Below, one piece after another: positions 1 to 63,999 of a stretch of 64,000 nt of DNA. Position 1 is the first letter of the stretch. Every line of letters begins with the position of its first letter. The notes below the pieces were generated by a model that made no database searches, was not told the origin of the DNA, and saw nothing but the letters and a program-made list of their open reading frames with translations. The position numbers and the translations under genes are program-made. The stretch lies in assembly GCA_041242255.1 (NCBI GenBank), contig JBESAV010000001.1:755631-819630 (forward strand). The letters are read 5' to 3'. Source of the stretch: Candidatus Altimarinota bacterium. GTDB taxonomy: Bacteria > Patescibacteriota > Gracilibacteria > UBA1369 > GCA-2718715.

Positions 1-1295
1 CTGTACTTTTTGAAGAGAAAGGTGTGGATGCCTTGAGACTTTTCTTATATCAATCAAATGTACCGCTTGCAGAAAGTACGAGATTTTCAGATGACCATGT
101 AGACGAAATAATGAAGAAGTTCAGCCTAACTTTCTGGAACACATATTCATTCTTTATCACATACGCAAACATAGACAACTTCACTAAAGATAATGTTGAC
201 CTTTCAAACTTAAATCAATTCCATGAACTAGACAGGTTTATTATCTCTAAGTTAAACTCACTGATCAAAGAGGTGACAGAAAACATGGACGCTTACAACT
301 TCCCTAAAGCTACTCGACCTATTATAGAATTCATGGATACTCTATCAAATTGGTATATTAGAAGAAGTAGGAGAAGATTCTGGAAAACTGTAAACGACAC
401 AGACAAATTCCAAGCATTCAGCACTTTATACTATGTACTAGAAAACTTAGCTAGATTATCAGCACCATTTACACCTTTCATTTCTGAATCTGTTTACCAA
501 AACCTTACAAAAGAGGAGTCAGTTCACTTAGCAAACTGGCCAAAATACGATGGAGCATTGATTGATTCAGACCTAATCCAAAAAATGGATTTAGCAAGAA
601 GCATCATTAATTCAGGACATGCTCTAAGAAGCCAAGCTAATATCAAAGTTAGACAACCTTTATCTAAAGTTGAAGTTGCAATACCCCAAAAAGAACTCCA
701 AGAACAAGTCGAAGAACTTAAGGAAGTAATCAAAGACGAATTAAACGTAAAAAACATTTCAATAATTGATTCCGCTGAAGACTTTGTAAACAAAACAGTA
801 AAACCAAATGCCAAAAAACTAGGACCAACCCTTGGACATAAAATGAAAGAAATAATTAACGCTTCACGAAATAATGAATTTGAAATAAAAGGAGAACAAA
901 TAGAAATCGCAGGAGAAACTCTAGAACTAGAAGGCAACTTTGAAATCCAGTTCGAAGCTAAAGAGGGAACACTAGCAGAAAGTCAGAATGGAATTGCAAC
1001 AATCCTTCACACTGAACTTTCAGAAGAACTAATTCAAGAAGGAATAGTTCGAGATATAATCAGACAAATTCAAGAACTAAGAAAAGAAATGAATCTTGAA
1101 GTAAATGATCACATACATTTATATCTAGAGTCACAAGAAGAAAAATTAAGCTCAGCTATAACAAAATTAGCCGATGTAATAAGAGAAGAAACACTAGCAG
1201 ATGAGCTACAACAATCTGGAGATCTCGAATGGGAATCTTCAAAAGAAGTAGAAATCGAAAACCATAAACTTCTAATTGGTATTAAAAAATGCTAA
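1..1295 (+). CDS. ileS: Isoleucyl-tRNA synthetase, C-terminal part (5' end lies upstream of the window)
   Basis: Frame stays open back to nt 3. Motifs GVDALRLFL and LSNWYIRRSRRRFWK plus the C-terminal anticodon-binding layout are typical of IleRS. Confidence 0.9.
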   Translation, partial: VLFEEKGVDALRLFLYQSNVPLAESTRFSDDHVDEIMKKFSLTFWNTYSFFITYANIDNFTKDNVDLSNLNQFHELDRFIISKLNSLIKEVTENMDAYNFPKATRPIIEFMDTLSNWYIRRSRRRFWKTVNDTDKFQAFSTLYYVLENLARLSAPFTPFISESVYQNLTKEESVHLANWPKYDGALIDSDLIQKMDLARSIINSGHALRSQANIKVRQPLSKVEVAIPQKELQEQVEELKEVIKDELNVKNISIIDSAEDFVNKTVKPNAKKLGPTLGHKMKEIINASRNNEFEIKGEQIEIAGETLELEGNFEIQFEAKEGTLAESQNGIATILHTELSEELIQEGIVRDIIRQIQELRKEMNLEVNDHIHLYLESQEEKLSSAITKLADVIREETLADELQQSGDLEWESSKEVEIENHKLLIGIKKC

Positions 1296-1657
1296 CTAAA
1301 ATACTTTTATCTATTGGCTTCAATGGAATAGTTCTATTTCTAGCTCAATACCTCTTACAAGATTTATCAGTTACAGGTGGACTCAAGACATATATTTATT
1401 TTGGGCTTGCATTTGGAATAGCCAACGGTCTCATAAAACCAATCCTAAAGCTTCTAACAATACCTGTTAAATGGGCAACTTTAGGCTTAAGCTTAGTAGC
1501 TATAAATATACTTATGTTCATAGCAGTTGATCTAACGCTAGAAGAAATTTTTGGCTCAAACTACAACATCGTACTCCAAAAAAATCTTGCAACTTACCTC
1601 AAAACCGGTATCGTTGTTGGTGTCTTAAATTGGATAAAAAATATAATAATTAAGTAA
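1289..1657 (+). CDS. YvlD / phage-holin-family-IV-like small membrane protein
   Basis: 122 aa with about 4 TM segments. The stretch GLAFGIANGLIKPILKLLTIPVKWATLGLSLVAINILMF matches the G..N..I.PIL..L..P....TLGL signature. Overlaps the ileS stop by 7 nt. Confidence 0.6.
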   Translation: MLTKILLSIGFNGIVLFLAQYLLQDLSVTGGLKTYIYFGLAFGIANGLIKPILKLLTIPVKWATLGLSLVAINILMFIAVDLTLEEIFGSNYNIVLQKNLATYLKTGIVVGVLNWIKNIIIK

Positions 1658-1872
1658 TGGCAGAAACTCTAACTATAGCACAAGTTATCGTAAGTATACT
1701 TCTTACTCTTTCTATACTAGCTCAAAACAGAGGAACAGGACTATCAGCAACTTTCGGTGGGACTGGAGACTTCTACGTTGAAAAAAGAGGAGCTGAAAAA
1801 GTTCTTTACAACTCTAGTATTATACTTGCTGCATTATTCGTAGGAATAGCATTGGCACACATCTTCGTATAA
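1657..1872 (+). CDS. secG: Preprotein translocase subunit SecG
   Basis: 71 aa with two TM helices. Has the LAQNRGTGLSATFGG glycine-rich loop characteristic of SecG. Confidence 0.6.
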   Translation: MAETLTIAQVIVSILLTLSILAQNRGTGLSATFGGTGDFYVEKRGAEKVLYNSSIILAALFVGIALAHIFV

Positions 1873-1880
1873 AAAATTCT

Positions 1881-3539
1881 ATGTTTTTAAGAAAAATTTC
1901 CCAAATTTTTCAGAACTACAGTAAAAAAGATATACTTATAACAAAAGCACTGACAGCGATTTTACTCCTGTCAGTTTTTGTTCTAGGAATAGTTACATTG
2001 GTTTTTAACTATAAAATAGACAACAAACCAAATGAATACACAGAAGCAATAATCTCAGAATACGAAGGCATAAACCCTTTATTCCCTCAAACCAACAAAG
2101 CAAATGATGATATATCATATCTAGTTTTTGAAGGTCTTACTCGATACAATCCTGAAACTTTCAACTTCGAAGACAACCTAGCAACCTACACTATTAACCA
2201 AGACTCAACAGTCTTTACTTTTCAACTAAAAGAAAACCTCAAATGGTCGGATGGAACTCCAATCACAATTGATGATGTAATCTTCACGTACAAGACTATA
2301 TATCAGAATCAATCCAACCCTAATCAAATAATACGAGACTACTTCAGGGAAATACAAATAAATAACACTGCAGAGAACGAGGTACAATTTATCTTACCTC
2401 AACCCAATAGCTTTTTCCTTGCACAAGCAACCCTACCCATATTACCAAGACACAAACACACAAAAATACAGGTTGATCAACTAAGCTTAGATTCCTTTGA
2501 CAAGAAGCAATTAGTTGGAAGCGGTCCTTTTCAAATACAAAAAATTGAAGATCTAAAAAACAATACCGCACGGATAGTTTTAAAACCAAACCCATATTGG
2601 AGAAAAACACTTCCTGAAATTGAGAAAATCGAATTCTTCATTAATCCAGACATTAACTATCTGTTATCAATACAAGAAAATATAAACGCATTTCCAGACC
2701 TTGAACCAAAATATGAAGACAACTTAGACCAAAAGCAATTTGAATTTGCTCAATATACTAAATCTCAATACACCGCACTTTTCCTAAACACAGAAAATGA
2801 TATCTTGAGAAAACAACCAATCAGAAACGCTATCCAAGCAGCAACAGATAAATCATCATTGCAACAAAACTTTATCAACAAAAAAGTAGTAAGCTTACCT
2901 ATCTTCCAATTTCAAAACATTACCCAAATTCCAAGTGCAAACCTAGATAATGTAAGACAAACACTTCAAGATTTAGGATATGAACTGAACGGAGAAGGAT
3001 ATTATCAAGATGAAAATGAAGTCCTACAATTCAACCTAACCATCCCAGCTTATGAAAACAATCCAGAAAAAAGCGAGGAGATAGATAAATTAGCAAGATT
3101 CTTAAAAACAAACTATCAAAGAGTTGGTATTGGCTTAAACATTCAAGCACTGCCAGATAACCAATTCTCCCAGACTTTAGCTACCAAAAATTACGATATG
3201 ATCCTATTAGGTCAAGATTTAGGTAAAGATTTTGACTTATTCCCATACTGGCATTCAAGTCAAGTAGGGGAGGGTAGGTATAATCTATCCAACTATCAGA
3301 ATCCTATTACAGATTCTTTACTAGAAAATATTAGAATAGAAAACAACCAAGAAATCCAGAAAGAACTAGTGTCCGACATTAACTCTCAAATCTACGAAGA
3401 TACTCCTGCAATATTTCTATATACTGACATTCATACATTTGCATTTGACAATAAGGTCAAAAACCGTAATATTCTCACGAACTATTCCTCCAGCCCACAA
3501 CGATTTTTCAATATTGAAAACTGGAGTTTAAATAATTAA
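1881..3539 (+). CDS. ABC transporter substrate-binding protein, family 5 (peptide/nickel type)
   Basis: N-terminal anchor helix. LKWSDGTPITIDDVIFTY and GSGPFQI motifs are typical of SBP_bac_5; size 552 aa. Confidence 0.7.
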   Translation: MFLRKISQIFQNYSKKDILITKALTAILLLSVFVLGIVTLVFNYKIDNKPNEYTEAIISEYEGINPLFPQTNKANDDISYLVFEGLTRYNPETFNFEDNLATYTINQDSTVFTFQLKENLKWSDGTPITIDDVIFTYKTIYQNQSNPNQIIRDYFREIQINNTAENEVQFILPQPNSFFLAQATLPILPRHKHTKIQVDQLSLDSFDKKQLVGSGPFQIQKIEDLKNNTARIVLKPNPYWRKTLPEIEKIEFFINPDINYLLSIQENINAFPDLEPKYEDNLDQKQFEFAQYTKSQYTALFLNTENDILRKQPIRNAIQAATDKSSLQQNFINKKVVSLPIFQFQNITQIPSANLDNVRQTLQDLGYELNGEGYYQDENEVLQFNLTIPAYENNPEKSEEIDKLARFLKTNYQRVGIGLNIQALPDNQFSQTLATKNYDMILLGQDLGKDFDLFPYWHSSQVGEGRYNLSNYQNPITDSLLENIRIENNQEIQKELVSDINSQIYEDTPAIFLYTDIHTFAFDNKVKNRNILTNYSSSPQRFFNIENWSLNN

Positions 3540-63407: not shown

Positions 63408-63489
63408 CGCATAAATTAATTCTTAAAACAACTTATACAATCCCATAAAATCTTCTAGATCAACCAGCTATATCAATCCATTTTGTAAA

Positions 63490-63798
63490 CTACAATTTCA
63501 CCTTACCCCATAAGTATGACCTCCACTTAGTATACGCAATATGACTAAATTTCTCATCTAAGGCAAAACTAACCATATCTCTTACATAATTTTGAACACA
63601 TAAGTACTCGTCAGCGTATAAGTCTAAAAAATCAAACAACTCTTCAAAAAACACTCCCTTAGGAAGCCTGGCAAGATACCTAACCTCATAATGGTTTAAG
63701 AAAGGGCCTAACTTATAATGTACAAGCTCAGATATATCTTCCTGACCAACATAAGACAGCAATCTATTTTTATATTCAATATTATAATCTAATACCAT
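63490..63798 (-). CDS. Hypothetical small protein
   Basis: 102-aa ORF. No motif recognised. Confidence 0.35.
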   Translation of the reverse strand: MVLDYNIEYKNRLLSYVGQEDISELVHYKLGPFLNHYEVRYLARLPKGVFFEELFDFLDLYADEYLCVQNYVRDMVSFALDEKFSHIAYTKWRSYLWGKVKL

Positions 63799-63849
63799 AA
63801 ATCAAATTATCAACACTTGACAACATAAAACAAATTAAGATTAAGTCAA

Positions 63850-63999
63850 GCTACCGCTCCAACTCATTAGTATTAGTAATATAATTATACGCCTGCACCG
63901 AAGCGTATACACCTTCAGCAGCACCTATTATTGCTTGCTTAAATTCGGCATCCGTTACGTCTCCAGCAGCATAGAACCCTTCTATGTTCGTACGAGCCT
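63850..63999 (-). CDS. trxB: Thioredoxin reductase, C-terminal end (rest lies beyond the window)
   Basis: My translation of the reverse strand gives EARTNIEGFYAAGDVTDAEFKQAIIGAAEGVYASVQAYNYI...ER-stop, the conserved G-x-FAAGD / KQ...AAG.G tail of TrxB. It is not in the ORF track because it is short and truncated. Confidence 0.7.

Follow-up and report, generated by a model that had tools for sequence, protein, structure and literature searches.

Strand bias along the whole chromosome of a Peribacteria bacterium, with two skew levels and a candidate origin beside dnaN

In nearly every cellular genome of double-stranded DNA the strands are balanced, since two forks leave the origin in opposite directions, and a main bacterial chromosome that breaks this balance end to end implies unusual DNA copying. 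As reported by Kadnikov et al. (2020, PMC7143001), a whole-chromosome G/C disparity occurs in three Microgenomates of the Candidate Phyla Radiation (CPR), all of the order UBA1400: Ch65, Ca. Collierbacteria and Ca. Beckwithbacteria. The authors suggested either an origin and a terminus close to each other or unidirectional replication of the theta type, and they described the curves of Peregrinibacteria as typical. A few genomes with a 'rolling circle' skew pattern were listed by Chen et al. (2020, PMC7111523), and Xie et al. (2021, PMC7858055), whose study includes a deep-sequencing analysis of chromosome coverage, predicted 77 unidirectional replicons, mostly chromids, among 16,103 large replicons. 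Here we describe a disparity of this kind in G000, a Peribacteria/Peregrinibacteria (CPR) bacterium whose genome is a single contig of 1,000,477 bp. We started from a 64,000-nt window of it (G000 755,631–819,630) and from an earlier interpretation of that window, called here the sequence-only reading.

In mitochondria, skew scales with how long a site stays single-stranded, and the skew in Borrelia, Chlamydia muridarum and Lawsonia reverses at origin and terminus, each strand being balanced overall. The G000 chromosome resembles vertebrate mitochondrial DNA (Min and Hickey 2007, PMC2779903) in its A/C-rich and G/T-rich strands, in the size of the skew and in proteins whose amino-acid content shifts with skew, but its strongly skewed arc is flat and it encodes a normal primase and replisome. 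Like Borrelia, C. muridarum (PMC2089121) and Lawsonia (PMC2671203), it has two compositional classes of genes, divided by coding strand. Its own skew never reverses. The Pseudoalteromonas chromids (PMC7858055) share a one-signed GC skew over several hundred kb or more, which is read there as one-way replication; they are, however, mostly plasmid-derived secondary replicons, whereas this is the sole main chromosome, with a DnaA/dnaN-type origin. The UBA1400 genomes are likewise small CPR genomes with a nearly unbroken fall of cumulative GC skew and similar gene numbers on both strands, and C is about twice as abundant as G on one strand. Ch65 has 29.8% C and 15.0% G, and G000 has 22.9% and 13.5%. 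Unlike Ch65, which has no A/T disparity, G000 shows a clear one (34.9% A vs 28.7% T), and it belongs to a different CPR lineage. The two-level profile, the oriC candidate and the proteome consequences documented here go beyond the UBA1400 account.

The kind of disparity is already known. New are its occurrence in a second CPR lineage, its extent within that lineage, the added A/T disparity, the two-level profile, a unique DnaA-box origin candidate, a graded series among relatives and a protein effect controlled by orthologues. G000 offers a recognisable DnaA-type origin for testing, and its lineage shows graded versions of the trait. Assembly checks based on GC skew and growth estimates of the iRep type assume two forks and will mislead for such genomes.

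One-signed strand bias of window and chromosome

Open reading frames (ORFs) of at least 100 aa were called greedily, giving 850 in the genome and 59 in the window (28 on the plus strand, 31 on the minus strand). The sequence-only reading had described a top strand poor in G whichever way the genes point, and all eight of its hand-counted 60-nt lines reproduced exactly. The window contains 23,537 A, 18,477 T, 14,597 C and 7,389 G, with a top-strand GC skew of −0.328 and an AT skew of +0.120. Every 2-kb bin had a negative GC skew (−0.05 to −0.52), and top-strand GC skew at third codon positions (GC3 skew) was negative for 59 of the 59 ORFs, on either strand (−0.08 to −0.83).

The bias extended over the whole contig (GC skew −0.26, AT skew +0.10), which has 349,178 A (34.9%), 287,205 T (28.7%), 229,343 C (22.9%) and 134,751 G (13.5%). 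None of its 20-kb bins was clearly positive, and the sign did not change across 1.0 Mb. The cumulative G−C count dropped almost unbroken to −94,592, with two negligible upticks only. The sign flips at origin and terminus and the balanced strands that mark classical bidirectional replication are absent from G000; its cumulative GC skew runs one way along the whole replicon, and its strands form an A/C-rich and G/T-rich pair of the mitochondrial type. A near-zero skew and one that follows gene orientation, the two outcomes that the sequence-only reading had named as refuting, are both excluded. The suggestion that the window lies on one replichore understated the case: the entire chromosome is one-signed, with no replichore of opposite sign, and the window straddles the second of two boundaries in skew magnitude.

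Coding-strand effects, namely transcription-coupled mutation or codon selection, could in principle produce such a bias with no part played by the physical strand. The raw skew was indeed weaker where plus-strand genes dominate. After separating the skew into one part due to the physical strand (R) and another due to the sense strand (T), we found that codon position 1 also carried a strong sense-strand part (T = 0.33 to 0.38). At four-fold sites, however, T was ~0 against R of −0.43 to −0.70. The sign was set by the physical strand in 97% of genes, and intergenic DNA was skewed alike: genome-wide, top-strand GC3 skew was −0.457 for plus-strand genes and −0.544 for minus-strand genes, and intergenic skew was −0.235. 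These three observations refute the coding-strand explanation, whose chances we regard as practically nil, and they bear out the claim that the bias is tied to the physical strand.

The bias is best explained by mutation that differs between the two physical DNA strands over the whole circular chromosome. In the most strongly skewed arc, R at codon positions 1, 2 and 3 was −0.21, −0.15 and −0.64, and it reached −0.70 at four-fold sites, where the top strand has 49.7% A, 29.5% T, 17.6% C and 3.1% G. The bias is old enough to have altered codon positions that change amino acids. A low-GC island at 560–580 kb (32% GC) had a GC3 skew of only ~−0.1, compared with −0.3 to −0.7 elsewhere, and is probably DNA recently acquired or inverted that is not yet at the local composition. 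We also observed two giant ORFs on the plus strand, at 254,339–264,394 (3351 aa) and 341,583–352,928 (3781 aa), the former with an atypical negative AT skew at third codon positions.

Two skew levels and a candidate origin

Boundaries in skew magnitude were located by an orientation-adjusted two-level likelihood fit at four-fold sites. The first was best placed at 212 kb (support 210–214 kb) and is a step in magnitude only. The second was best placed at 796 kb (support 793–798 kb, or 37.4–42.4 kb of the window); an unadjusted segmentation gave 797,058. Four-fold-site GC skew was −0.69 to −0.72 on the arc that runs from 796 kb across coordinate 0 to 212 kb, and −0.50 to −0.56 on the arc from 212 to 796 kb. 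The skew did not slope along the strong-skew arc (410 kb; likelihood-ratio chi-square 0.88). A mitochondrion-like gradient with distance from the origin was rejected because this arc is flat, and such a plateau fits the expectation for ordinary forks.

To the left of the first boundary lie, in order, rnj, 700 bp of non-coding DNA containing only 38 G, dnaN (205,709–206,818), mfd and the tmRNA gene (210,147–210,569). The non-coding stretch, directly upstream of dnaN at 205.0–205.7 kb, holds eight relaxed DnaA-box words, TTNTNCACA, all in one orientation. The genome mean of TTNTNCACA is 0.13 per 700-bp window and the runner-up window has three, which makes the cluster at dnaN the only one in the genome. 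Canonical DnaA boxes with at most one mismatch gave 461 matches, nearly all on the top strand, and were set aside as driven by base composition and uninformative. The 205.0–205.7 kb site looks like a normal DnaA-type oriC, and we treat it as the candidate origin. The dnaA gene (~827.8–829.3 kb, minus strand) is far from dnaN (205.7 kb, plus strand); the skew steps at dnaN and shows no step at dnaA. Genes diverge from the dnaN-side site, being mostly on the minus strand at 0–200 kb and mostly on the plus strand at 200–360 kb. The oddity is that the arc to the right of the candidate oriC stays G-poor on the top strand.

A search of G000 for dif sites in the canonical E. coli and B. subtilis forms returned no convincing match; three tyrosine recombinase genes are present, at 83.7, 84.9 and 420 kb. 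Per-contig read depth near the origin (~19–22 in run X1, 7–10 in X3 and X4) showed no usable step. In run X5, from a strain a few percent diverged, the contig diverges from the reference immediately past the tmRNA 3′ end (~210.57 kb in G000), as expected for a strain-specific insertion beside tmRNA.

An alternative is that a genome of normal skew was assembled with its 212–796 kb segment turned the wrong way round. Flipping that segment would yield a normal-looking profile of positive and negative arms, and such orientation errors are documented (PMC7111523). Nevertheless, we rejected this misassembly, which is barely credible given collinear relatives, a bridging contig and a curated genome of one sign. 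G004, assembled independently and from a different genus of the family, runs collinear with G000 from 164 to 248 kb and also bridges the ends of the G000 contig. G008, likewise an independent assembly and from yet another genus, is collinear with G000 across dnaN. Contigs from an independent run bridge 204–211 kb, and one contig from a different run spans mfd, tmRNA and the next gene. The same step, again lacking a proper sign change, occurs in G008 (−0.43 left, −0.14 right) and in G004 (−0.4 to −0.6 left, −0.13 to +0.18 right). Moreover, the manually curated and circularised relative HGW-Peregrinibacteria-1 is also one-signed (PMC11657941), and long contigs of G028, G025 and G054 hold one sign for 200–340 kb across dnaN. 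As a separate observation, the dnaN–mfd block is inverted in genus g5 (G004 C10, 96–116 kb; G007) relative to G000 (205.7–210.1 kb) and G008, and in each genome it carries the skew of its current strand.

Direction of replication and the relatives

Marking one physical strand all round a circle requires a process that senses a polarity of the whole chromosome; with transcription excluded by the orientation test, fork direction is left as the cause. We propose, with a probability of roughly 0.55, that mostly one-directional replication from a canonical oriC produces the whole-strand bias; its direction, its mechanism and the mixture of modes are all inferred. Initiation would take place at the DnaA-type origin just upstream of dnaN (205.0–205.7 kb). 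The fork toward lower coordinates would nearly always travel, and the opposite fork would be set up, or survive, in only ~10–20% of cycles. The minus strand would then be the leading-type strand nearly everywhere, with its template partner copied discontinuously. While single-stranded, the minus strand would gain G and T by C-to-T and A-to-G deamination, leaving the top strand rich in A and C. In the rare bidirectional cycles, the forks would meet near 796 kb, and we suggest that these cycles account for the weaker skew, of the same sign, in the 212–796 kb arc. Under such a mixture the weaker arc should have a skew of a(1−2p), where p is the fraction of cycles with the opposite fork; with a = −0.70 and a weaker arc of ~−0.50 to −0.56, p would be ~0.1–0.2 in G000.

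The replication and repair genes found in G000 are compatible with an ordinary replisome; they encode DnaA, DnaB, DnaG, DnaN, only one Pol III alpha (DnaE-type), UDG, MutS and Mfd. Among helicase loaders, DciA gave only a match below threshold (17 bits) and DnaC/DnaI was not found in G000, a result that is not decisive. The presence of DnaA, DnaB and DnaG together with the DnaA-box cluster argues for theta-type initiation. A recent switch of replication mode, in which slow sites should lag, was unsupported: four-fold sites gave much the same ratio between the arcs as codon positions 1 and 2, which argues for a long-standing equilibrium.

Several observations weigh against mostly one-directional copying. 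The weaker arc is uneven, with three segments of −0.43, −0.60 and −0.45. The second boundary (793–798 kb) is sharp and lies ~90 kb off the antipode of the origin, which implies that replication is not purely one-way. The first skew step sits 5–9 kb to the right of the DnaA-box cluster and not upon it. In a pure one-way scheme, just 54% of the coding bases run with the dominant fork proposed here; a scheme with the origin at 210 kb and the terminus at 797 kb co-orients 55%, and the best of 2,500 schemes scanned, with the origin at 200 kb and the terminus at 360 kb, reaches 61%, a value picked as best of many. Lastly, the rpoB-rpoC-rpsL-tuf-S10-spc-secY cluster (966.6–1000.4 kb) and the 16S, 23S and 5S rRNA genes (640.6–647.6 kb) are on the plus, C-rich strand and would meet that fork head-on. 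The four genomes in which the rpoBC cluster was placed (G000, G004, G010 and G061) all carry it on their C-rich strand.

Relatives were examined in two ways: complete genomes (G010, G061 and G062) were sampled at 20 sites each, and 40 Peribacteria loci in which dnaN is flanked by 6 kb or more on either side were surveyed, with dnaN set on the plus strand and gene orientation adjusted for. In G061 (PGYE01000001.1, HGW-Peregrinibacteria-1, 998,424 bp), for which an iRep of 1.14 is reported, 19 of the 20 sites had R at GC3 between −0.49 and −0.75; the remaining site contained plus-strand genes only, at −0.61, and the sampled raw GC and AT skews were −0.30 and +0.14. G010 (OZ246407.1, 1.49 Mb) had R of ~0 in one half and −0.19 in the other, and G062 (OY970195.1, 1.44 Mb) had +0.15 to +0.22 on one arc and ~0 on the other. 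In the G000 frame, the GC3 skew of G004 was −0.15 to −0.59 on the arc from 665 kb through 0 to 210 kb and ~0 at 226–640 kb. G056 was flat for 320 kb upstream of dnaN and reached +0.36 downstream. A symmetric profile of positive and negative skew was found in none of the four complete genomes. In these four, dnaA and dnaN are hundreds of kb apart (852 vs 1360 kb in G010, 855 vs 196 kb in G061, 263 vs 1202 kb in G062).

The counts of the dnaN survey are descriptive and not a statistical test, since the genomes are related. The classical change from negative to positive at dnaN occurred at one locus of the 40. Skew was positive on both sides at 20 loci and rose from ~zero upstream to positive downstream at 15. 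The step across dnaN was positive in 93% of the 40 loci, with a mean of +0.18.

The same arithmetic as in G000 would give p of ~0.1–0.2 for G061, G028, G025 and G054, and of ~0.5 for G004, G010, G056 and G062. It is possible that the Peribacteria as a lineage gave up symmetric two-fork replication, with one dnaN-side fork that always runs and another that fires with a heritable probability varying among species from about one half to about one tenth. We advance this wider proposal tentatively, at clearly less than even odds. Under it, a probability of about one half would leave one arc skewed and the other flat, and one of about one tenth would make the whole chromosome one-signed, as in G000. 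If true, there would be bacterial chromosomes with heavy and light strands resembling those of mitochondria and with two compositional classes of proteins. The trait is not universal in the phylum, as Anantharaman et al. (2016, PMC4736985) reported a normal skew profile for Ca. Peribacter riflensis (58.5% GC).

The main rival to mostly one-directional replication fits the base composition equally well. Here, ordinary bidirectional replication from ~205 kb to ~796 kb would contribute a skew of ~±0.1, and a second process acting on one strand all round the circle would add a large constant offset; candidates for that process are rolling-circle (sigma-mode) replication in some cycles, or a stage in which one specific strand is left single. 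The two sharp boundaries (210–214 and 793–798 kb) with flat levels between them favour an offset. In addition, G010, G062, G004 and G056, each with one skewed arc, one arc of ~zero and roughly opposite boundaries, look like an offset combined with an amplitude, and Chen et al. (2020, PMC7111523) read one-signed skew as rolling-circle replication. However, no such second process is known for bacterial chromosomes, and the primase and standard replisome are present. On balance we consider the constant offset unlikely.

The proposed fork direction depends on skew polarity. Taking the G-rich minus strand as leading is the standard inference and fits both the orientation of dnaN in relatives and the bulk orientation of genes. 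The sense strand of dnaN is G-rich in most relatives, in keeping with standard polarity. With polarity reversed, forks would run toward higher coordinates and the C/A-rich top strand would be the leading one. We know of no bacterium with a C-rich leading strand, which counts against this reversal. The reversal would make the operons of highest expression, namely the rpoBC/ribosomal-protein cluster (four of four genomes) and the G000 rRNA genes, co-directional with replication, and the rRNA genes of Ch65 are also on the C-rich strand (Kadnikov et al. 2020, PMC7143001). Its difficulties are the G-rich dnaN sense strand in most of the 40 relatives, the rRNA genes on the G-rich strand in G061 and G062, and the predominance of minus-strand genes in most 20-kb bins of the strong-skew arc, where most genes would be head-on. 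We hold reversed polarity to be quite improbable. Under standard polarity, the rpoB-rpoC-rpsL-tuf-S10-spc-secY supercluster, which points toward the dnaN-side origin in all four placed genomes (at 1093 kb in G010), is a conserved head-on arrangement. In the region around the G000 rRNA genes (636–652 kb), five tRNA genes are on the opposite strand, two of them between 16S and 23S.

Coding strand and protein composition

The strand bias reaches the proteins. Relative to one another, plus-strand proteins were enriched in Q (2.1-fold), T (1.6-fold), P and H (1.5-fold each), and also in I and N, and minus-strand proteins in M, V, R, W, G, C, E and D. The median isoelectric point (pI) of plus-strand and minus-strand proteins was 6.33 vs 5.00 in the genome (Mann-Whitney p = 2e-20) and 8.94 vs 4.82 in the window. 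The contrast between coding strands that the sequence-only reading had proposed is thereby confirmed both within the window and genome-wide.

Protein family was controlled for by comparing orthologues of G000 and four other genomes, with 76–246 pairs per comparison. The amino-acid index was obtained by subtracting the combined fraction of Q, T, P, H, N and I from that of G, V, E, D, R, M, W and C; these classes were picked from the contrast between plus and minus proteins of G000, and the comparison across genomes is independent of that choice. The difference between orthologues in sense-strand GC3 skew predicted the difference in index (r = 0.77–0.86, p down to 4e-50), with a slope of ~0.16–0.19 index per unit skew. 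Among orthologues, composition follows the coding strand. The acidity and amino-acid content of proteins in this genome are partly a product of the strand that encodes them and are not to be taken as evidence of function; strand-driven composition can also distort homology searches and phylogenies.

The features of the window are as follows (window coordinates).

1–64000, no strand: G-poor, A-rich top strand in both gene orientations (skew counts, bins, ORF GC3)
4968–5579, plus strand: predicted protein of 203 aa with zero glycine, 8.4% Q, 6.9% T and pI 9.7, the extreme of the bias (composition)
7495–8877, minus strand: CysS, a housekeeping gene with a G-rich sense strand; 10.7% D, 8.9% E, 2.2% Q, 2.4% T, pI 4.8 (Pfam PF01406, composition)
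14447–15502, plus strand: GT1 glycosyltransferase on the G-starved strand, 6 Gly in 351 aa (1.7%), pI 10.1 (Pfam PF00534, composition)
17721–19046: EngA/Der (Pfam)
37400–42400, no strand: second skew change point of the genome, with no sign change (likelihood fit at four-fold sites)
41773–43812, minus strand: RecG, with the strongest top-strand GC3 skew of the window, −0.83 (Pfam, composition)
45123–47015, minus strand: TyrRS, 630 aa, acidic and V/G-rich; an N-terminal B3_4 domain precedes the class I catalytic core (Pfam, composition)
49940–60099, minus strand: nine-gene orphan operon, pI 4.3–5.0 (6.6 for the small last ORF) (composition)
60154–61542, minus strand: GlyRS (Pfam)

The glycosyltransferase had been described as glycine-poor, and it has exactly six Gly residues. 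The acidity of the orphan operon had been judged to be no evidence of function, which agrees with our data, as its pI of 4.3–5.0 matches the minus-strand norm (window median 4.82). CysS, RecG and TyrRS were rightly placed on the minus strand, with one slip in naming: the gene at 17721–19046 is EngA/Der, and TyrRS is the one at 45123–47015. The B3_4 domain of that TyrRS is a fold known from the PheRS beta subunit.

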